Source: Deinococcaceae bacterium (GTDB lineage: Bacteria; Deinococcota; Deinococci; Deinococcales; Trueperaceae). From it: a DNA stretch of 17,242 bases. Below, in pieces: positions 1-17,242 of this stretch. The notes beneath the pieces are model-generated. The model was given only the letters and a program-made list of their open reading frames with translations, was not told where the DNA came from and ran no database searches. Positions within the stretch are counted from its first letter, which is position 1, and every line of letters starts with the position of its first letter. The stretch lies in the NCBI GenBank assembly GCA_040256005.1, contig JBDZWC010000062.1, positions 1-17,242 of the forward strand, read 5' to 3'. The position numbers and the translations under genes were made by a program.

Positions 1-1307
<1,307 letters not shown>

Positions 1308-1308
<1 letters not shown>

Positions 1309-2735
1309 TGGCCGTCACTACGGGCAAGCCGTTCGTGGAGACCAACCGGGTCATCGGGCCCGGGCAGACGTACGCCAAGATCGACGACTCCGTCCTCTCG
1401 CCGGTCCTCCTGGACGTGCAGCGGACGCCGCGCTGGTGGTGGATCGGCTTCGGGATCTCGCTGGCGTTCCTGGCGATGTACCTGACGTCGATCGTGCACC
1501 TCATCACGACGGGCATCGGGATCTTCGGCAACAACATCCCGGTCGCGTGGGGGATGCCGATCATCAACTTCGTGTGGTGGATCGGTATCGGTCACGCCGG
1601 GACGCTGATCTCTGCGGCCCTGCTGCTCTTCAGGCAGCCGTGGCGCACGACGATCAACCGCTTCGCCGAGGCCATGACGATCTTCGCCGTCGTCTGCGCT
1701 GGCCTCTACCCCATCCTCCACCTAGGTCGCCCCTGGGTCTTCTACTGGCTGTTGCCGTACCCCAACACGTACGGCCTCTTCCCGCAGTTCCGCAGCCCGC
1801 TCGACTGGGACCTCTTCGCGATCGGCACGTACGCGAGCGTCTCGGTCCTGTTCTGGTTCATCGGCCTGATCCCCGACATGGCCAGCCTGCGGGACCGCGC
1901 CAAGCTGCCGTTCCAGAGGCTGCTCTACGGCGTGCTGTGCCTCGGTTGGACCGGCTCGGCGAAGGAGTGGCAGCGCTACCAGCGCGCCTACCTCCTCCTG
2001 GCAGCCCTCTCCTTCCCACTGGTGCTCTCCGTGCACAGCACGATCGCCATGGACTTCGCCGTGGCCCAGGTACCGGGCTGGAACAACACGATCATGCCGC
2101 CCTACTTCGTCGCCGGGGCCGTCTTCGCCGGGTTCGCCATGGTGCTCATCCTGGCCATCCCGCTGAGACGGGCGTTCGGCCTCGAGAACCTGATCACGAT
2201 GCGCCACCTGGACAACTCGGCGAAGCTGATGCTCGCCACGGGCATGATCGTGGTCTACGGGTACCTGCTCGAGATCTTCATCGCCTGGTACTCCGGCGTC
2301 GAGTTCGAGCGCTACATGATCTGGAACCGCATGTTCGGGGATCACGCCCAGTTCTTCTGGGCGCTGATCCTGTGCAACTTCGTCGCGATCCAGCCCCTGT
2401 GGCTGAGGAGCGTCAGGCAGAGCCCCATCGGCCTGTTCATCATCTCGATAATCGTCTCCGTCGGCATGTGGCTCGAGCGCTTCGTGATCATCGCCGTGTC
2501 GCTGACGAAGGACTTCCTACCGTCGTCGTGGGGCGACTACGTCAGCACGTTCTGGGACTGGGCGCTGTACCTCGGTAGCTTCGGCCTGTTCTCCACCCTC
2601 TTCTTCCTGTTCATCCGTCTCCTGCCTTCGATCGCCACGGCCGAGACCAAGGAGACGGCGTACCACTACAGCCACCACAAGATCGACCCGTACGAAGACA
2701 TCAGGGCCGAGGTGTTCCAGGAGGTGAGCGCGTGA
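1308..2735 (+). CDS. actC: ACIII subunit ActC (NrfD/PsrC-family quinol-binding membrane protein)
   Basis: True start is ATG 1308, overlapping the actB stop (TGATG 1306-1310). About 10 hydrophobic helices. Motifs 'NFVWWIGIGHAGTLISA', 'INRFAEAMT', 'HLGRPW', 'FRSPLDWD', 'LVLSVHS', 'GMWLERFVII'. Confidence 0.95.
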
Positions 2736-3307
2736 GCATGACGACGGTCGGGGAGCCCGGCCACATGACGCGCCCCCAGAGGCCACTACACGGCGTCGCA
2801 GCTCAGTTCGGCACCGTCGACGACCTCATGGCCGCCGCGGAACGGGTGCGCGACGCCGGCTACACGAGGACCGACGCGTACACGCCGTTCCCTGTCGAGG
2901 ACCTGGACGAGGCCCTCGGCATGAAACCGACGCGCATCGGTTGGATCGTGCTGGCGGCGGGCGTGCTCGGGGGCTTGGGCGGCTTCTTCATGCAGTGGTG
3001 GGCCAACACCAGCTACTACCCGCTCATCATCGGCGGCAAGCCCCTCAACAGCTGGCCGAACTGGATCGTCATCATGTACGAGCTCACCATCCTGTCGGCC
3101 GCGTTCACGGCCGGCCTCGGGATGATCCTGCGCAACGGCCTGCCCCGCGCCTACCACCCCATCTTCAACACGCCCGGCTTCGAGGGCGCCAGCCGCGACA
3201 AGTTCTTCATCGCCATCGAGGCCAGGGACCCACAGTTCGACCTCAGGCGGACGACCGCGTTCCTCGAGAGCCTCGGGCCGGAGCGCGTCAGCGAGGTCGA
3301 AGCGTGA
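2732..3307 (+). CDS. actD: ACIII subunit ActD (DUF3341-type, two TM helices)
   Basis: GTG start overlaps the actC stop (GTGA), with SD GGAGG upstream. Motifs 'DAYTPFPVEDLDEALG', 'YPLIIGGKPLNSWP', 'YELTILSAA', 'ASRDKFFIAIEA'. Confidence 0.93.
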   Translation: MSMTTVGEPGHMTRPQRPLHGVAAQFGTVDDLMAAAERVRDAGYTRTDAYTPFPVEDLDEALGMKPTRIGWIVLAAGVLGGLGGFFMQWWANTSYYPLIIGGKPLNSWPNWIVIMYELTILSAAFTAGLGMILRNGLPRAYHPIFNTPGFEGASRDKFFIAIEARDPQFDLRRTTAFLESLGPERVSEVEA

Positions 3308-3930
3308 GCGCAGTTCCTCCGCGAGACGGTCGACAAGCGCCCCGGCGCACCATGCCGGCCGTGGCCCTCAGCGTCGCCCTCACCCTTCTGCTGACGGCCT
3401 GCGGACGCAACATGTTCGATCAGGCGAAGGTCGAGCCGTTCGAGAGCTCCACGTACTTCGAGGACGGGGCGGGCATGCAGGTGCCGCCGCCCAACGCGAT
3501 CTCCCGCGAGCGCGGCGGCCTCGACCCGGCGTTCCTGACGGGTCAGAACGCGCAGGGCATGCTCACGGAGCTGCCCTTCGAGCTGACCGTCGAGGTCCTA
3601 CAGCGGGGCAAGGACCGCTTCGACATCTACTGTTCGCCCTGTCACAACTACAACGGCGACGGCACTGGCGCGGTCGTGCGGCGCGGGTTCCCCCAGCCCC
3701 CCTCCTTCGTCGACGAGCCGCGGCTCCTGGCTGCCCCCGTCGGCTACTTCTACAACGCCATCACCAACGGCTTCGGCCGCATGTTCTCCTACGCCTCGCG
3801 CGTCGCTCCCGAGGACCGTTGGGCCATCTCCGCGTACGTCAAGGCCCTGCAGCTGTCGCAGAACGCGGACCCGTCCGACATCCCAGAGGGCGCCGAGGTA
3901 ACGCTGCCGAACACGGAGGCGGCCAGATGA
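3304..3930 (+). CDS. actE: ACIII subunit ActE, monoheme cytochrome c lipoprotein
   Basis: GTG 3304 overlaps the actD stop; ATG 3352 is an alternative start. Lipobox LTA-C followed by 'GRNMFDQAK'. Single CXXCH (CSPCH), likely axial Met in 'GFGRMFSYA', and 'DRWAISAYVKALQ'. Confidence 0.92.
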   Translation: MSAVPPRDGRQAPRRTMPAVALSVALTLLLTACGRNMFDQAKVEPFESSTYFEDGAGMQVPPPNAISRERGGLDPAFLTGQNAQGMLTELPFELTVEVLQRGKDRFDIYCSPCHNYNGDGTGAVVRRGFPQPPSFVDEPRLLAAPVGYFYNAITNGFGRMFSYASRVAPEDRWAISAYVKALQLSQNADPSDIPEGAEVTLPNTEAAR

Positions 3931-5156
3931 GCCTAGACGCCCACCAACCTGCTCACGTCCACACCGCCTTGGACGTCCCCGCCCCCGACACCGGCAGGTT
4001 CCAGACGATCGCGCTGGGGATCGGCGTGATCGCGGTCGTCGGCGGCGCCGTGCTCGGCTTCTTCGGTCAGGGCGGAGCGGCCGGCTTCTTCCAGTCGTAC
4101 CTGATGGCCTACGTCTTCTGGCTGGGCATCTCGCTGGGCGCGCTGGTGATCCTCTTCACCCAACACCTGGCAGGCGGTCCGTGGGGGCCGCTCATCGCGC
4201 GGCCGCTCGAGTCGGCTGCCACGGTGATCCCCCTCATGGCGCTGCTGTTCGTGCCGGTGCTGCTGGGAGCAGGGGACCTGTATCCCTGGACGAACGCCGC
4301 CTACGTCGCCGAGCATCCCACGGTGGCGGCCAAGCAGGAGTACCTCAACATGCCCTGGTTCATCGTGCGCAGCGTCGCCTACTTCGCGGTCTGGATCGCC
4401 GCCGCGATGCTCTACCGGCGCAGTTCACTCGACCAGGACGCGGCCGCTCAGACAGCGGGCAAGATCGGCTACCGACTGCGCAGCGCGGCCGGCATGTGGT
4501 TCGTCTTCTACGTGCTGAGCATGACCTTCGCCGGCTTCGACTGGGCCATGTCGCTCACGCCGACCTGGTTCTCCGGTATCTACCCCACGATCCTGATGGC
4601 GACGCAGGCCATCACCGGCATCGCGTTCATGATCATCGTCATCACCTGGATCGCGAGCCGCAACGCGACGGTGGACGCCCTGCTCACGCCGCGGCGCCTG
4701 CAGGACCTGGGGAACTTCCTGATGGCCTTCACCATGTTCTGGGCGTACGTGCAGGTGTCGCAGCTGATCATCCAGTGGAGCAACAACGTCGTCGAGACCG
4801 CCAGCTGGTACGTGCTGAGGTTCAGCCCCGGTTGGATAGGGGTGTCGGCGTTCCTGCTGTTCTTCGGCTTCTTCGCACCCTTCTTCGTCCTGTTCTCGCG
4901 TTGGGTGAAGCGGAAGCGGAGGGCGCTCGTGGTGGTGGCCGTCTGGTCCCTGTTCATGCAGGCGCTCAACTACTTCTGGTTCCTGGCGCCGGCCTTCGGA
5001 CGGGAGGGCTTCGCCTTGACCCTGTCCGACGTGCTGCTGTTCATCGGCATCGGCGGGATCTGGCTCGCGGCCTTCGCCAGGCAACTCGCCAGCCGGCAGG
5101 TCTTGCCGGCGCACGACCCGCGTCTCGTCGCCGCGGCTGCGGAGCATCATGGCTGA
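3927..5156 (+). CDS. actF: ACIII subunit ActF (ActC-paralogous membrane subunit)
   Basis: ATG 3927 overlaps the actE stop (ATGA), with SD GGAGG. About 10 TM helices. Motifs 'FDWAMSLTPTWFSGIY', 'LQDLGNFLMAFTMFWAY', 'QLIIQWSNN'. Confidence 0.92.
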   Translation: MSLDAHQPAHVHTALDVPAPDTGRFQTIALGIGVIAVVGGAVLGFFGQGGAAGFFQSYLMAYVFWLGISLGALVILFTQHLAGGPWGPLIARPLESAATVIPLMALLFVPVLLGAGDLYPWTNAAYVAEHPTVAAKQEYLNMPWFIVRSVAYFAVWIAAAMLYRRSSLDQDAAAQTAGKIGYRLRSAAGMWFVFYVLSMTFAGFDWAMSLTPTWFSGIYPTILMATQAITGIAFMIIVITWIASRNATVDALLTPRRLQDLGNFLMAFTMFWAYVQVSQLIIQWSNNVVETASWYVLRFSPGWIGVSAFLLFFGFFAPFFVLFSRWVKRKRRALVVVAVWSLFMQALNYFWFLAPAFGREGFALTLSDVLLFIGIGGIWLAAFARQLASRQVLPAHDPRLVAAAAEHHG

Positions 5157-5928
5157 GGATCGCGGAACCGGGTTCGAGCCCACGCGTCAGTACCTACTGA
5201 GCGAAGGGCAGGTGCGCATCGCCTTCGTGCTGTCGGCCGTCGGCATGGCGGGCTTGTTGCTCCTCCTGCTGGTCTTGGCGATGGCCAAGCCGCAGGTGCG
5301 GCTCACGCCAGCGAACGCGACCGAGTTCCAGGCGGGCCTGGAAGCCGCGACCGGCGCGCTCGCCGGCTATGAGGTCTACGAGGACGGCCGCGCTCGCATC
5401 GACATCGACAGGGCCATGGAGCTCGTGGCCGAGCGCGGCGTTCAGGCGCCGGGCATCGTCGCCCCCGGAGCGGCCCCCAGCGCGCCCGTGGGCGGCGACG
5501 CGGCTGGCGGGGCCGACGACGACGAGCAGGCGCAAGCCTCGGTAGACGGCGCCGTGGCCTTCGCGACCTGCGCGGCGTGTCACCAGGCCAACGCCGCCGG
5601 CATCCCCGGCGCCTTCCCTCCCCTAGCGGGACACGCGGCGGAGCTCTACCAGGCGGAACGCACCTACATGCTCGACGTGGTGCTCTTCGGCCTCACCGGG
5701 CAGATCCAGGTCGACGGCGTGTCGTACAACGGTTTCATGCCTTCGCATCAGCACCTCGCCGACGAGGAGATCGCAGCGATCCTCAACCACGTCATGACCT
5801 CCTTCGGCAACGAGGACGCCGGGGTCTCTTTCGAGCCCTACACGGCCGCCGACGTCGCGGGGCAACGCGAGCTGGCGCTGACCTCTGACCAGGTACATCA
5901 ACTGCGCTCGGAGCTGGGCTTGGAGTGA
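5149..5928 (+). CDS. Membrane-anchored ActG-like protein fused to a C-terminal class I cytochrome c (Thermus c552-like)
   Basis: One TM helix (about aa 24-46), then an ActG-like 'GYEVYEDGRARIDIDRAMELVAERG' segment and an Ala/Pro/Gly/Asp linker. The C-terminal domain has CAACH (codons from 5569), 'GIPGAFPPLAGH', 'YNGFM' and 'DEEIAAILNHV', matching the T. thermophilus c552 pattern as I recall it. Confidence 0.85.
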   Translation: MAEDRGTGFEPTRQYLLSEGQVRIAFVLSAVGMAGLLLLLLVLAMAKPQVRLTPANATEFQAGLEAATGALAGYEVYEDGRARIDIDRAMELVAERGVQAPGIVAPGAAPSAPVGGDAAGGADDDEQAQASVDGAVAFATCAACHQANAAGIPGAFPPLAGHAAELYQAERTYMLDVVLFGLTGQIQVDGVSYNGFMPSHQHLADEEIAAILNHVMTSFGNEDAGVSFEPYTAADVAGQRELALTSDQVHQLRSELGLE

Positions 5929-11187: not shown

Positions 11188-11826
11188 ATGAAGCTTGCAG
11201 CCGAGAAGCGTGGCAAGGGCGGTCTGGGCGAGCTCAGACGCAACGGTCGCCTACCCGCTGTCATGTACAACCGAGAGATCAACGTGCCCGTCAGCATCGA
11301 GATGCGCGCCTTCGACAAGGCGTTCCGGCAGGTCGGCAACTCCAGCCTGATCGACCTCGACATCGCTGGCGACGTGCACAGCGTGATCGTCAGGCAGGTC
11401 CAGATGGACAAGCGGCGCCGGGAGCCCATGCACGTGGACTTCTACGCCGTGAGCGCCAACGAGCCGGTCCAGGTGCCCGTGCCCGTCGAGTTCGTGGGCA
11501 GCCCGGTGGGCGTCCGTGACGGCGGCCAGCTGCACGTGCAGCGCCGTGAGGTCAGCATCTCGGTGCTGCCGCGCTTGATCCCGGCCCACATCGAGCTGGA
11601 CATCAGCGGTCTGGCCATCGGCGACAGCCTCCACGTGTCCGACATCGTGGAGAAGCTGCCGCCGGAGGCCGAGATCCTCGACGAGCTCGACCTCGCCCTG
11701 GTCGCCGTCGTGCCACCGCGTGTCGCGGAAGAGGAAGAGACCGCGGAGGCCGCCGAGCCGCAGGTCGTCGGTGAACGGGACGAAGAGGGTGACGAAGGCG
11801 CCGAGGAGGCCTCCTCGGAGGACTGA
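11188..11826 (+). CDS. rplY: 50S ribosomal protein L25 / general stress protein Ctc (TL5-type long form)
   Basis: Motifs 'LRRNGRLPAVMYN', 'FDKAFRQ', 'VRQVQMDKRRREPMHVDFY', 'IPAHIELDISGLAIGDSLHVSD'. Acidic C-terminal tail. Conserved adjacency to pth. Confidence 0.96.
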   Translation: MKLAAEKRGKGGLGELRRNGRLPAVMYNREINVPVSIEMRAFDKAFRQVGNSSLIDLDIAGDVHSVIVRQVQMDKRRREPMHVDFYAVSANEPVQVPVPVEFVGSPVGVRDGGQLHVQRREVSISVLPRLIPAHIELDISGLAIGDSLHVSDIVEKLPPEAEILDELDLALVAVVPPRVAEEEETAEAAEPQVVGERDEEGDEGAEEASSED

Positions 11827-11847
11827 AGCCGGCCTTAGGAGCCACGA

Positions 11848-12447
11848 GTGCACGTGATAGTGGGGCTCGGCAACCCTGGGCCCAGGTACGCAGGAACCCG
11901 GCACAACGCCGGGTTCCTCGTCGTAGAAGAGCTCGCCAGGCGCTCTGGCGCGGAGTTCCGCCGCGTCGGGCGGGGCGACGCCGCACGCGAAGAAGCGCGG
12001 GCGAAGCTGGGCGCAGGTGGGCCAGGCTCGGACGCGCTGCTCGTCAAACCTCAGGCCTACATGAACCTGTCAGGGGCCGCGGTGCAGGCCGTGCTCGCCA
12101 GGTACCGCGCCGTCCCGGGTGACCTGCTGGTCGTGCACGACGACGTCGATCTGCCGCTGGGCCGGCTGCGCTTCAAGCAGGCAGGCGGCGCGGGCGGCCA
12201 GAAGGGCGTGAGGCACGTCATCCACCGGATAGGCCCCGAGTTCCTCAGGCTCAAGATCGGCGTGTCGCGGCCGCCGGAAGGCTGGGCCACCGACGCCTGG
12301 GTTCTGTCGCGCTTCGGACCGGACGAGCGCGACCTGGTGAGCCGGGTCGTCGCCGCGGCCGCGGACGCCCTCGAGGCGCTGCCGGCGGAAGGCCTGGAAG
12401 CTGTCATGAACCGCGTCAACGGCCTGGACCTGGCGGCGATCGACTGA
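11848..12447 (+). CDS. pth: Peptidyl-tRNA hydrolase
   Basis: GTG start with SD AGGAG (11837-11841). Motifs 'IVGLGNPG', 'TRHNAGF', 'KPQAYMNLSG', 'VHDDVDLPLG', 'RLKIGVSRP'. Confidence 0.96.
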   Translation: MHVIVGLGNPGPRYAGTRHNAGFLVVEELARRSGAEFRRVGRGDAAREEARAKLGAGGPGSDALLVKPQAYMNLSGAAVQAVLARYRAVPGDLLVVHDDVDLPLGRLRFKQAGGAGGQKGVRHVIHRIGPEFLRLKIGVSRPPEGWATDAWVLSRFGPDERDLVSRVVAAAADALEALPAEGLEAVMNRVNGLDLAAID

Positions 12448-13807: not shown

Positions 13808-15301
13808 CTAGTTCCAGCGTGCGCGTGGCGCCTGCGCAGCGGCTTCCAGGTCAGGGGCGCTGTAGCCGCGTTCCTCGCTGCGCGAGATCAGCTTGCGGGC
13901 GTGCAGACCCTCCAGGACGAACTCGGCCGCCGCAGCGACCTCGTCCGCGACCTGGCTCGCGGCGACCGCGCGCGCCGCGTCCAGCAGGCCTGGCACCTCT
14001 CCGAGCACACCCGTGAGGTCCCCGCTCCTGACGTCCTCGGGGATGCGCAGTTGGTTCTCGGCCTCGAAGTGGGCAACGACCTCGTCGGTGGGAACGCTGG
14101 CAGCGCGACGCCCGAAGACCTGACCTATGGCACGCCTGACGATGTCGCGGGCGACGGCCTCGGCCCCCTTGAGCTCGCCCTCGTACTCGAGCTCGAGCTT
14201 GCCGGTCACGGCCGGCAAGGCGGCGTAGAGGTCCGCGATGCGGGCGATGGGGCGGTCCTCGCCCAGTAGGAGGGCCCGGCGCTCGGCGTTGGAGGCCACG
14301 TTCTCCATCAGCGTGATGGGCAAGCGCTGCGACACGCCGGAGTGCTTGTCGACCCTCGCGTCGTCACGGGCTTGGAACGCGACCTCTTCTATCGCCTCGG
14401 CCACGAACGCGGGCACGTGGACGCCTTCCGCACCGGCGACCTGGCCGTCACGGGCGAGCCAAGCCTCCTGGCTGGTGATCGCCATGCCCTCCTCGACGGT
14501 GCGGGGGTAGTGCGTGCGGATCTCGCTGCCGATGCGGTCCTTGAGGGGCGTGATGATCTTGCCGCGGGCCGTGTAGTCCTCCGGGTTGGCGCTGAAGACC
14601 AAGAGGACGTCGAGCGGCAGGCGCACGGGGTAGCCCTTGATCTGGACGTCGCCCTCCTGCATGACGTTGAAGAGCGCCACCTGCACCTTCCCCGCCAGGT
14701 CTGGCAGCTCGTTCATGGCGAACACGCCGCGGTTCGCGCGCGGCAGGAGCCCGTAGTGGACCGCGCGCTCGTCCCCGAGGGAGGTGCCCAGCTTGGCGGC
14801 CTTGATGGGGTCGATGTCGCCTATGATGTCTGCGACCGTGGAGTCCGGCGTGGCCAGCTTCTCGAGGTACCTGGCCTCACGCTGCAGCCATGCCACAGGC
14901 GTGGCGTCACCGCACTCCGCGACGATGGCCTTGCCCTCGCGCGTCACAGGGGCGAACGGGTCGTCGTGGAGCTCCGTCCCGGCGATGTAGGGGATCTCTT
15001 CGTCCAGCAGGTTGACGAGCGCCCTCAGGATGCGCGTCTTCGCCTGGCCGCGCAGGCCGAGGAGGATGAAGTTGTGGCGGCTGAGGATGGCGTTCACTAC
15101 CGCCGGTGTGACGGTCTCCTCGTACCCGAGAACGCCCGGGAACAGCTCCTCACCGCTCCTGAGCTTCGCGATGAGGTTGGACCGGAGCTCGTCCTTGACG
15201 GTGCGACCGGCCAGCCGCTCCCAACGGGTACCCTTCAGGTCCTTGAGCACCGTGGAGCGCGCTCCGCTGCTGCGCGGAGGGATAGCTGTTGGCTCGTTCA
15301 T
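13808..15301 (-). CDS. AAA+ ATPase of the Mg-chelatase-I/MoxR-related clade (function unknown)
   Basis: Variant Walker A 'GLRGQAKT'. '[13 protein letters not shown]', 'GLLPRANRG', variant Walker B 'FAMNELPDL', sensor 'FSANPEDYT', Arg finger 'PLKDRIG', and 'SGVSQR'. Confidence 0.88.
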
Positions 15302-15307
15302 GGCGCG

Positions 15308-15313
15308 ATGCTA
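15308..15313 (-). promoter_or_regulatory. -10 box for a leaderless AAA+/VWA transcript
   Basis: Minus strand: TAGCAT, 6 nt (CGCGCC), ATG 15301. No SD. Confidence 0.65.
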
Positions 15314-15399
15314 GCACCGGCCTCTGGGACGACCGTGAACAGGATGGGCGCGTGCCCAGCGGGGTAGGCAGCGTGCCACGGTCGCACACAACGGGCAGG

Positions 15400-15432
15400 A
15401 AAGAAAGGACCCTGCGTGGGGGGCGCAGGGTC
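15400..15432 (-). terminator. Rho-independent terminator
   Basis: Perfect stem GACCCUGCG/CGCAGGGUC (15432-15408) with a 7-nt loop CCCCCCA, followed by CUUUCUUU on the minus strand. Confidence 0.75.
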
Positions 15433-15509
15433 AAAGAGGAGATGGTGGAGGGGCTTGCCCTCCGCAGGCGCTGGGGTGAGCGCCCATCTCGGTCCCGGGG
15501 GTGGGGACC
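15400..15509 (-). ncRNA. Candidate ~110-nt structured small RNA with C-rich loops (family not recognised)
   Basis: -10 TAGAAT (15521-15516) and 6 nt precede a 5' hairpin GGUCCC/GGGACC. A three-way junction follows (GAGAUGG/CCAUCUC closing GGCGCU/AGCGCC and GGAGGG/CCCUCC), then a 9-bp terminator stem and CUUUCUUU. Confidence 0.6.
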
Positions 15510-15515
15510 ACACGG

Positions 15516-15521
15516 ATTCTA
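15516..15521 (-). promoter_or_regulatory. -10 box of the candidate sRNA
   Basis: TAGAAT in the only relatively AT-rich patch of the intergenic region. Its 6-nt spacing to the first paired G (15509) equals the -10-to-ATG spacing of the three leaderless genes. No consensus -35. Confidence 0.55.
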
Positions 15522-15621
15522 CTACATGGAGGGCAGTACTATCGTCTCCGATGAGAGCCTCGAACCGTGAACCCGCCGCCCGCAGCCACGTAGCGGACCG
15601 CGGCGCAGGTCGTCCGCGCTG

Positions 15622-17052
15622 ATGACGGTCGAGCGCGCCGAGCTTATCAGCGTGGGCACCGAGCTCCTGCTCGGCGAGATCGTAGACACCAACAGCGCCT
15701 ACCTCGCCACGTACCTGGCGGGGCGCGGCGTGGACGTGCTCTGGTCCTCGCGGGTGGGCGACAACCTGGATCGGATAAGGCACCTGCTGGAGACCGGGCT
15801 CTCGCGCAGCGACCTGGTCGTGCTGGGCGGTGGGCTGGGGCCCACGGAGGACGACCTCACCCGCGACGCCGTCGCCGCCGTCGTGGGCGAGGAGCAGACC
15901 GTCGACCCCGAGCTGGAGCGCTGGCTGCGCGCGCACTTCGCCTCGGGCGCCGGACCCATGCCGGAACGCAACCTCCAGCAGGCGCGCGTCATCCCCTCTG
16001 CCGAGGTCCTGGCCAACCCCATCGGCACGGCGCCCGGCTGGCTCGTCCGCACGCGCTGGCAGAGCGCGGACCGGGTGATCGTCACCCTCCCGGGACCGCC
16101 GCGCGAGCTGAAGCGCATGTGGGAGGAACAGGCGGTGCCACGCCTGCGGTTCCCCACCAGCCAGATCTTCACGCGGACGTACAAGACCCACGGGGTAGGC
16201 GAGTCGGCGGTCGCAGACCGACTCGGCGAGCTCACCAGCGGCGCCAACCCCAGCGTCGCCACGTACGCCAAGCGCGACGGCGTACACGTCCGGGTCGCTG
16301 CGAAGGGACCGTCCCCGGAGGCCGCGCGGGAGCTGGCCTCGGGGACCATGCGCGCCGTCGAAGCGGCGCTCGGGGCTGCCGTGTGGGGTGAGGACGACGA
16401 CGAGATGGCGGCGCTTGTGGTGCGCCGGCTCACACAGCGCGGCCTCACGCTGGCGGTCGCGGAGGGAGCGAGCGGCGGCCTCCTGACCGATCTGCTCGAG
16501 GAGGCCAAGGAGGGTCTCGCACCCGGCGGGCTGTTCGACTCGGTCGAACACGGCTCTGCCGCCCAGGACGCCGCTCCCGGTAGCCGGGGCGAAGGCGTGT
16601 CGGAGCTCGACCCGGCTCGGGCGCTCGCAGGGAGCGTGATAGCATGGCGACTGGAAACCATGCGAACGCTCCTACCCGCCCTGGACCTGCTCAGACGCCT
16701 CCCCGCCGGGGTTCAAGCCGGCGCGGCCGAGGTCGTCGCGGCTGTCGCCATGGCGGTCAGGACCATGTTCGCCGCGGACGTCGGGCTCGCCATCGGCTAC
16801 CCGTACGCGGCCCCGGCCGCGGCGGGCGCCGGCGGTTCCGGCGTCCTGTCACGACCCAGCGAGGACGAGAACGAAACGGGCACGGCCGGGCGCAAGGGCG
16901 CCAGGCCCCAGTTACGCCTAGAGATCGCGTTAGCCGTAGGCGACGACGTCACCACACGAACCCTCACCCTCCCACCACTCGGGCGGGCATGGGCGCGCGA
17001 ACGGTCAGCCTTCTCCGGTCTCCACCTCCTCCTGCGGTCGGCACTGCGCTGA
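15622..17052 (+). CDS. cinA: CinA-family protein: intact N-terminal COG1058 (MoCF-like, ADP-ribose pyrophosphatase) domain plus degenerate PncC-like C-terminal domain
   Basis: Motifs 'ELISVGTELLLGEIVDTNS', 'VGDN', 'GGGLGPTEDDLTRDA', 'NPIGTAPG', 'LPGPPREL' and a KH-like middle 'GVGES'. The C-terminal domain has 'LAVAEGASGGL' in place of AESCTGG. Directly upstream of recA. Confidence 0.92.
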   Translation: MTVERAELISVGTELLLGEIVDTNSAYLATYLAGRGVDVLWSSRVGDNLDRIRHLLETGLSRSDLVVLGGGLGPTEDDLTRDAVAAVVGEEQTVDPELERWLRAHFASGAGPMPERNLQQARVIPSAEVLANPIGTAPGWLVRTRWQSADRVIVTLPGPPRELKRMWEEQAVPRLRFPTSQIFTRTYKTHGVGESAVADRLGELTSGANPSVATYAKRDGVHVRVAAKGPSPEAARELASGTMRAVEAALGAAVWGEDDDEMAALVVRRLTQRGLTLAVAEGASGGLLTDLLEEAKEGLAPGGLFDSVEHGSAAQDAAPGSRGEGVSELDPARALAGSVIAWRLETMRTLLPALDLLRRLPAGVQAGAAEVVAAVAMAVRTMFAADVGLAIGYPYAAPAAAGAGGSGVLSRPSEDENETGTAGRKGARPQLRLEIALAVGDDVTTRTLTLPPLGRAWARERSAFSGLHLLLRSALR

Positions 17053-17157: not shown

Positions 17158-17242
17158 ATGAACGAGGACCGAAAGAGGGCACTCGATACCGCGGTCTCTC
17201 AGATCGAGAGGCAGTTCGGTAAGGGCGCGATCATGCGTTTGG
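17158..17242 (+). CDS. recA: Recombinase RecA, 5' end only (not in the ORF track)
   Basis: ATG 17158 translates [28 protein letters not shown], the RecA N-terminal signature. SD GGAGG at 17142-17146. cinA-recA synteny. Confidence 0.96.

Follow-up and report, generated by a model that had tools for sequence, protein, structure and literature searches.

Background

Several bacterial small RNAs, including FsrA, sX13, MmgR/suhB and 6C, are short, C- or CU-rich and end in a terminator. The closest described system is LhrC1-5 of Listeria monocytogenes; according to the accessible part of PMC4132741, these multicopy RNAs are 111-114 nt long, have a CU-rich loop, linker and terminator loop, and can dispense with Hfq. 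In the order examined here, sRNA work centres on D. radiodurans, where base pairing is reported, in the source text available, for PprS/Dsr2, dsr11, DnrH, OsiR, OsiA and DsrO. The present locus belongs to a conserved family in the Trueperaceae.

Position and structure of the RNA

The window is the whole stretch of DNA analysed (17,242 nt). On its minus strand, all of the features read by an earlier note are present at 15400..15521: the -10 box, the hairpins, the junction, a CUCUUU linker between junction and terminator, and the terminator (Table 1). Judged by sequence comparison, this element is a real, conserved small RNA gene of about 110 bases. The earlier proposal of a standalone sRNA gene is borne out by its own -10 box and terminator, its conservation and its independence from its neighbours.

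Table 1. Features of the sRNA locus and its flanks in window coordinates
Feature	Position	Strand	Basis or remark
-10 box TAGAAT of the sRNA promoter	15516..15521 (15521-15516)	-	read from sequence
Predicted sRNA, about 110 nt	15400..15509	-	predicted ends; 5' end placed 6 nt past the -10
Hairpin 1, loop CACCCCC	15491..15509	-	free-sequence 5' hairpin in other genera
Genus-specific insert: GAGAUGG plus GCGCU/AGCGC arm, loop CACCCC	15468..15490	-	alignment
GAGAUGG pairing with CCAUCUC	15490-15484 with 15445-15439	-	closing stem of the putative three-way junction
Arm with loop CACCCC	15483-15468	-	fold
Hairpin 2, GGAGGG/CCCUCC, loop CAAGC	15447..15463	-	stem scan
Conserved CU-rich core ACCAUCUCCUCUUU, proposed seed	15433..15446	-	family consensus CAUCUCCUCUCU
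Intrinsic terminator: 9-bp stem, C-run loop, U-rich tail	15400..15432	-	terminator scan, covariation
Terminator stem-loop (loop CCCCCCA); tail CUUUCUUU	15432-15408; 15407-15400	-	
ChlI-like AAA+ ATPase promoter (-10 TAGCAT, 15313-15308) and start (leaderless ATG at 15301, 6 nt past the -10)	15301..15313	-	context, outside the RNA
Divergent cinA -10 TACTAT (15537-15542) and leaderless ATG (15551)	15537..15553	+	context

The 121-nt stretch folds with a minimum free energy of -55.6 kcal/mol (z -4.26), and none of 200 shuffles is as stable. Folding is just as good for the plus strand (z -4.78); consequently, the strand call rests on the orientation of the -10 box and the U-tail and not on folding. 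One terminator-like site is found in 15000-16000 against 0.2 expected, and the scan of this region gave no full sigma-70 promoter.

This folding would also suit a short plus-strand gene of the kind known from type I toxin-antitoxin loci, whose ribosome-binding site and start (GAGGAG-ATG) would be the tract. Read on that strand, the sequence is GAGGAG ATG GTG GAG GG, and some variants alter third codon positions only. However, there is zero spacer between the Shine-Dalgarno-like tract and the ATG, the -10 box and U-tail are oriented the opposite way, and frame length ranges from 3 to 537 codons; across 72 rows, of which 3 are chance matches, nothing is conserved past residue 4. The plus-strand peptide was dropped on this lack of conservation, and such a gene is barely credible.

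Independence from neighbouring genes

Downstream of the RNA are the ChlI-like AAA+ ATPase gene (13808-15301) and then a VWA gene; cinA is divergent, and the ORF at 17159, going by how its start reads, is presumably recA. Both cinA and the ATPase have leaderless promoters. At the level of sequence, the RNA has a promoter and terminator independent of its neighbours.

A leader, attenuator or terminator acting in cis on the ATPase-VWA operon or on cinA-recA would fit the long-kept synteny of the RNA with cinA and the ATPase, the back-to-back sRNA and cinA promoters, and the position of the terminator 100 nt ahead of the ATPase start. Against this, the ATPase has its own leaderless promoter, some orthologs adjoin either cinA or the ATPase but not both, and siblings occur in tandem and at unrelated loci. 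In addition, four cinA loci were taken from genomes with no match or a weak match to the model: in two (G019 and G023), cinA and the ATPase are directly divergent with no RNA between them, while the remaining two comprise one diverged RNA copy and one other context. Since G019 and G023 keep both genes without the RNA, it is a removable unit and not a leader; this agrees with the earlier reading of an independent gene, which had pointed to the ATPase's own -10. A cis element is therefore very unlikely.

The sRNA and cinA -10 boxes (15516-15542) stand back-to-back, 15 bp apart; for this reason the two promoters must overlap, and they may compete. The leaderless ATG past the cinA -10 (window 15551-15622 (+)) is out of frame in L001-L005 and in frame in L006-L010. 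L001-L005 have an unconserved uORF of 19-30 aa with a stop that overlaps an ATG (TGATG/ATGA), which in the window is the cinA start; translational coupling of uORF and cinA is possible. CinA itself (15622-17052 (+)) matches its family only over residues 5-294 and its other 180 residues have diverged. These 180 residues do align in 13 relatives, while in 8 others the alignment stops near residue 292-348; degeneration of the deamidase domain is possible. The window also has an Alternative complex III cluster (138-5928; NrfD, ActD, cytochromes c) and rplY-pth (11188-12447), both ordinary.

Conservation in the Trueperaceae

BLAST finds the whole element in 11/11 other genomes of the window's genus; in other Trueperaceae genera, matches cover only its 3' half. 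Across the genus, identity to the window is 84-99% for the RNA, 54-70% upstream and 50-74% downstream (one downstream value was lost to Ns). Among the first 24 loci, cinA is kept beside the RNA in 22 and the ATPase in 20, and every locus has at least one of them. Of the 80 records listed in a scan for the motif, 18 bear the name Trueperaceae or Truepera, most with the same flanking genes; the family name used here comes from these. An exact 16-mer scan over all genomes gave unrelated taxa among the matches listed and is uninformative.

A widened model (R2) has matches at E<=0.001 in 101/128 Trueperaceae genomes (a tally that takes in the unpublished genome G067) and 31/36 genera, with 1-10 copies per genome. 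Some Trueperaceae genera, including complete genomes such as G033, have no R2 match. Going by these matches, the RNAs form a previously unannotated family with multicopy siblings in Truepera-like bacteria. In line with the novelty claimed earlier, the Rfam 15 scan gives no match overlapping 15400-15521 at E<=10. The list of 41 Dsr RNAs aside, no description of a Trueperaceae sRNA family was found in Rfam 15 or in the available portions of the literature (PMC4007540, PMC8217566, PMC7022480, PMC6798082, PMC7247583, PMC9195949, PMC6843392).

In the family, a 5' hairpin of free sequence is followed by a G-rich/CCCUC hairpin, the CAUCUCCUCUCU linker and a terminator whose loop contains a run of C; hairpin 1 is missing from the shortest copies (63-66 nt). 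Sibling types differ in the tract, which is CAUCUCCUCUCU, CCCAUCCUCUUCC or CAUCCCAUUUCUCUCCCC, and some copies are in tandem. The type-A set contains 69 copies (72 pattern rows minus 3 chance matches); the seed and the C-rich loop belonged to the search pattern, and the invariance of the 9-nt seed is thus built in. TAnnnT lies about 21, 51 or 71 nt upstream of the seed, in three narrow distance classes, in 67/69 type-A copies. At least four T are found among the 10 nt past the terminator stem in 64/67 copies. The terminator covaries: 6/10 pairs are changed on both sides in 17 sequences, and 9/10 in 60 model-fitted sequences with 94% of cells paired, compared with 29-51% in slid controls; model-based alignments lean towards the model.

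The first model (R1) finds two paralogs in the window's genome. One (C2:974-1047) is upstream of an S1 gene, and the other (C18:9087-9172) is tail-to-tail with a phosphate-ABC-type ATPase gene. By eye, both adjoin TPR/winged-helix-like regulator genes (L301 3-503, L302 1771-3084), a reading without Pfam support. The S1 gene after the C2 paralog has a long acidic N-terminal extension.

Copy numbers of up to 10 per genome could suggest a REP/MITE-like repeat. Alternatively, the element could be a tRNA/tmRNA 3'-end remnant: CCCUCCACCA resembles an acceptor end, and R1 weakly matches tRNA/tmRNA-like ends outside the family. However, the window's genome contains one full copy and two diverged paralogs with no near-identical copies, which speaks against the repeat that the earlier note had kept in view. 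The copies examined have a -10 box at a fixed distance and a U-tail, conservation continues past the CCA, and there is no Rfam tRNA/tmRNA match. Either origin is extremely unlikely. An acceptor-stem mimic was rejected, as the first pair is lost in many copies and conservation extends past the CCA.

Across four other families (24 genomes), R1 reaches a best E of 0.015, with matches to tRNA/tmRNA-like ends or apparent coding sequence. R2 in 40 genomes of family f4 gives a best E of 7.7e-4; none of 12 matches viewed is convincing by eye, L419 being the nearest. Genome G048 of family f5 has two elements (L438 799-882 (-) and L444) in which a terminator follows a tract that matches the 16S end exactly or nearly so; they probably lie antisense to the ribosome-binding site of a small gene. 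In G016 (L016, about 1320-1500), the 3' half of the terminator and its flank are tandemly repeated about three times after the RNA, with a 79-nt period.

Conserved core and genus-specific insert

On the alignments, the conserved part of the RNA is the linker CAUCUCCUCUCU, the hairpin before it and the covarying terminator with its C-run loop. Hairpin 2, counted as the longest stem by script and without a shuffle control, is a stem of 5-8 bp directly before the seed in 69/69 type-A copies; variants include GUAGA/UCUAC and AAGGG/CCCUU. Stems vary in sequence while the unpaired core stays constant.

The insert is present in 12/12 loci of the window's genus (g1) and in 0/12 loci of other genera (alignment A1). 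Within the genus, 99.5% of the cells of the three-way junction pair and 1/33 pairs is changed on both sides; this makes the junction compatible with the data, not proven. Covariation upholds the terminator of the earlier structure; in its three-way junction there is almost none.

The earlier note also proposed selection on three CACCCC-type loops. This is not supported for two of them: the CACCCC arm loop is limited to the genus, where UUCG or CCCGU replaces it in 2/12 members, and outside the genus a C4 run occurs in the loop of hairpin 1 in 24/49 three-hairpin members. The best-kept loop, and the one for which conservation stands, is the terminator C-run loop; it is present too in Deinococcus units found by promoter alone. 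As for action in trans through exposed loops, the RNA most likely acts through its CU-rich seed, which is not a loop but the linker/stem strand CAUCUCCUCUCU.

In the window RNA, the insert pairs with the core and the predicted unpaired probability of the seed is about 0.01 (seed ~99% paired). At 37 C, opening the seed is predicted to cost 3.7 kcal/mol; at 60 C the figure is 1.9. This cost is 1.9-3.8 kcal/mol in 10/10 copies with the insert; without it, 27/57 copies are below 1.5 kcal/mol and others reach 4.8.

Proposed mechanism

The core CAUCUCCUCUCU is identical to the 3' end of the 16S rRNA of the same genome at 10/12 positions. As mRNAs dock at this end of the rRNA, the RNA probably blocks translation of other genes. 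The best model, which we consider rather probable, is an Hfq-independent, LhrC-like trans-acting sRNA that blocks ribosome-binding sites. The RNA would be transcribed from its own -10 promoter to the intrinsic terminator, with transcription and exact ends as predicted here. Its CU-rich core, framed by two hairpins, would pair with AGGAG(G/A)UG-like Shine-Dalgarno regions in several mRNAs. This pairing would keep ribosomes from loading in the manner of LhrC, and the C-run loops may contribute. A U for C change in the core may let it pair with both AGGAGGUG and AGGAGAUG. In the window's genus, the inserted GAGAUGG strand would fold back on the core, and either the target would have to invade or this lock would have to open (about 3.7 kcal/mol). 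We infer the base-pairing mode, the repression and the role of the lock.

Starts led by a Shine-Dalgarno sequence and leaderless ones both occur in the rough gene set of the window's genome (2817 genes, with starts from our own rough gene caller). Predicted duplexes with the seed concentrate immediately upstream of starts. When GU pairs are allowed, sites complementary to seed 9-mers are 3.4-4.7-fold enriched directly ahead of predicted starts, with 7-11 sites per 9-mer. The complement of the 16S 9-mer is enriched 8.2-fold in the same test, and that of the terminator loop is not enriched at starts (0.84-fold). Among non-leaderless start regions, 249/2307 bind the seed at <= -11 kcal/mol versus 187 +/- 73 for shuffles; the order of the seed is not special, as 45/200 shuffles of the same composition reach the observed count. 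The zero seed matches on 424 leaderless starts are a consequence of the class definition.

The top target prediction, the leuA start region, was rejected; its strong site is kept in only 2/29 relatives, both in the genus, and pairing is weaker (-24 to -27) in 3 more genus members. Other top predictions, including a DivIVA-like gene, stand as predictions only. Neither an Hfq gene nor a TROVE/Ro gene was found in the window's genome (96.8% complete), which has two KhpA/B-type KH genes.

The RNA could instead be a decoy, with the CU tract and C-run loops titrating a pyrimidine-binding protein such as KhpA/B, S1, Rho or a cold-shock protein. The KhpA/B-type genes would fit this, as would the S1 gene downstream of one paralog, a seed order no better than that of CU-rich shuffles, the loss of the one predicted target examined for conservation (leuA), and siblings that vary the tract (CCCAUCCUCUUCC, CAUCCCAUUUCUCUCCCC) while its composition stays. 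However, the tract is identical letter for letter across genera within each sibling type, which suits pairing better than composition-based binding. CsrA sponges, moreover, have a repeated short motif, of which there is none in this RNA. A decoy is thus on the unlikely side, and blocking of ribosome-binding sites is retained as the preferred model.

Transcript-side data comprise four of 22 runs, all of them contigs. Run X18, assembled from relatives' sequence, has a summed depth of 170 at 15401-15450 versus 0 and 16 in the next bins; this depth comes from contigs, which cannot show level, strand or ends, and is not counted as support. A contig of the probable DNA run X9 stops at the same place as the X18 signal (15409).

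Promoter box and Deinococcus look-alike

In many siblings, a box TGT(A/C)AG-N5-TGT(A/C)AG sits 10-12 nt ahead of the -10. Allowing up to 2 mismatches, TGTAAG-N5-TGTAAG is present in 27/60 aligned siblings, 22 of these 10-11 nt before TAnnnT. It is absent from the insert-bearing copies (0/10), including that of the window. Compared with a reversed control, the box is enriched in four of five Trueperaceae genomes (34 vs 3, 29 vs 4, 42 vs 9 and 15 vs 5; G021, 4 vs 3), and G033 has 10 vs 0. The window's genome has three relaxed sites (C18, C20, C199). We take the 11-bp direct repeat to suggest an activator of the OmpR/PhoB or SARP type; no literature on the identity of a box-binding protein was found.

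Fifteen hand-picked genes behind the box include 2 with a pilin N-methyl motif, 6 with GGDEF/EAL/HD domains and 4 with other signalling or regulatory domains. At L487-L537, the box precedes pilin, GGDEF/EAL/HD and response-regulator genes in both Trueperaceae and Deinococcaceae. Further short promoter-to-terminator units lie behind it at L488/L515, L489, L524 and L532; R2 gives no score to the last three, which may be other sRNAs.

When position 4 may be A or C and the pattern includes the -10, the box is found in 30/61 genomes of family f2, with no control matches, and in 0/61 of family f4. Of the 30 f2 loci viewed, six have a 70-80 nt unit with the same layout as the Trueperaceae RNA. The Deinococcus unit is CU-rich and sRNA-like, lies after cysS and occurs in named Deinococcus species, among them D. 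yunweiensis, D. phoenicis and D. marmoris. It is present in 68/111 genomes of the genus (g27) at E<=0.01, with the box in 41/49 viewed (loci L541-L547, L569-L572, L575-L606, L617-L648). R2 scores 12/12 cysS-linked loci at 18-30 bits, and the best match of the Deinococcus model in the window's genome is the window RNA (E 0.137). Homology of the Trueperaceae and Deinococcus RNAs is plausible on these scores, not proven. The cysS-linked RNA may already be named among the 41 Dsr RNAs of D. radiodurans. In the dRNA-seq tables searched for D. deserti, a species that may lack the RNA, the interval from cysS to its neighbouring gene holds no orphan start site.

A wider circuit can be sketched, though it is distinctly unlikely in full. 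An unknown activator at TGT(A/C)AG-N5-TGT(A/C)AG would co-activate pilin/c-di-GMP genes and ancestral sRNAs that mimic the 16S 3' end; these would damp Shine-Dalgarno-led mRNAs and spare leaderless ones, and the genus lock would make the window's copy conditional. Leaderless mRNAs account for 60% in D. deserti, according to the part of PMC4007540 available. If true, the circuit would be shared by Trueperaceae and Deinococcaceae and would constitute a translation-class switch in an Hfq-less lineage.

Should the anti-Shine-Dalgarno model be correct, it would tie riboregulation to a hallmark of this lineage, its division of mRNAs into leadered and leaderless. The family offers clear predicted ends, a predicted seed, natural cases of absence and a candidate upstream box. 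The look-alike RNA behind the same box is found in named, cultured Deinococcus species, which makes it amenable to ordinary genetics. A new lead in its own right is the promoter box, which also stands ahead of pilin and c-di-GMP genes.

Comparison with known small RNAs

The window RNA reaches the gathering score of no Rfam 15 family, and sibling loci give sub-threshold scores only. Siblings score 21-26 bits against FsrA, sX13 and MmgR/suhB, far below the cut-offs of 80, 50 and 41. 6C RNA (RF01066) has no match at the locus; its best matches in the genome are elsewhere, at 19-20 bits against a cut-off of 47. A Y RNA is not indicated, with neither a TROVE partner gene nor an Rfam match. In the source text available, DnrH, OsiR and dsr11 of D. 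radiodurans are located at loci other than cinA or cysS; the window RNA and the loci compared contain no match to the PprS probe or to one dsr11 primer.

The cuckoo RNAs (ar14) of Alphaproteobacteria are likewise multicopy and keep an anti-Shine-Dalgarno-like motif while their stems vary, as described in the accessible sections of PMC4615179. In the same sections, they carry CCUCCUCCC in each of 2-4 adjacent hairpin loops, whereas the Trueperaceae core lies between hairpins. The loops of the window RNA are CACCCCC, CACCCC, CAAGC and CCCCCCA; the ar14 model scores the paralogs at 20.6-21.3 bits (cut-off 58.8) and does not match the window RNA.

LhrC1-5 share more features with this family. In the portion of PMC4132741 available, they are multicopy, consist of a hairpin, a CU-rich single strand and a terminator with a CU-rich loop, block the Shine-Dalgarno site and have siblings under a common regulated promoter. 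The Trueperaceae RNA differs in having no LhrC sequence match in Rfam scans, in belonging to another phylum and in its genus-specific locking insert; loop A, linker and terminator loop differ in sequence. Its core is CAUCUCCUC, in contrast to the CUCCC/UCCC repeated at three sites in LhrC, as far as the available text describes. By analogy, the Trueperaceae RNA would work most like LhrC1-5, with the cuckoo RNAs as a looser likeness.
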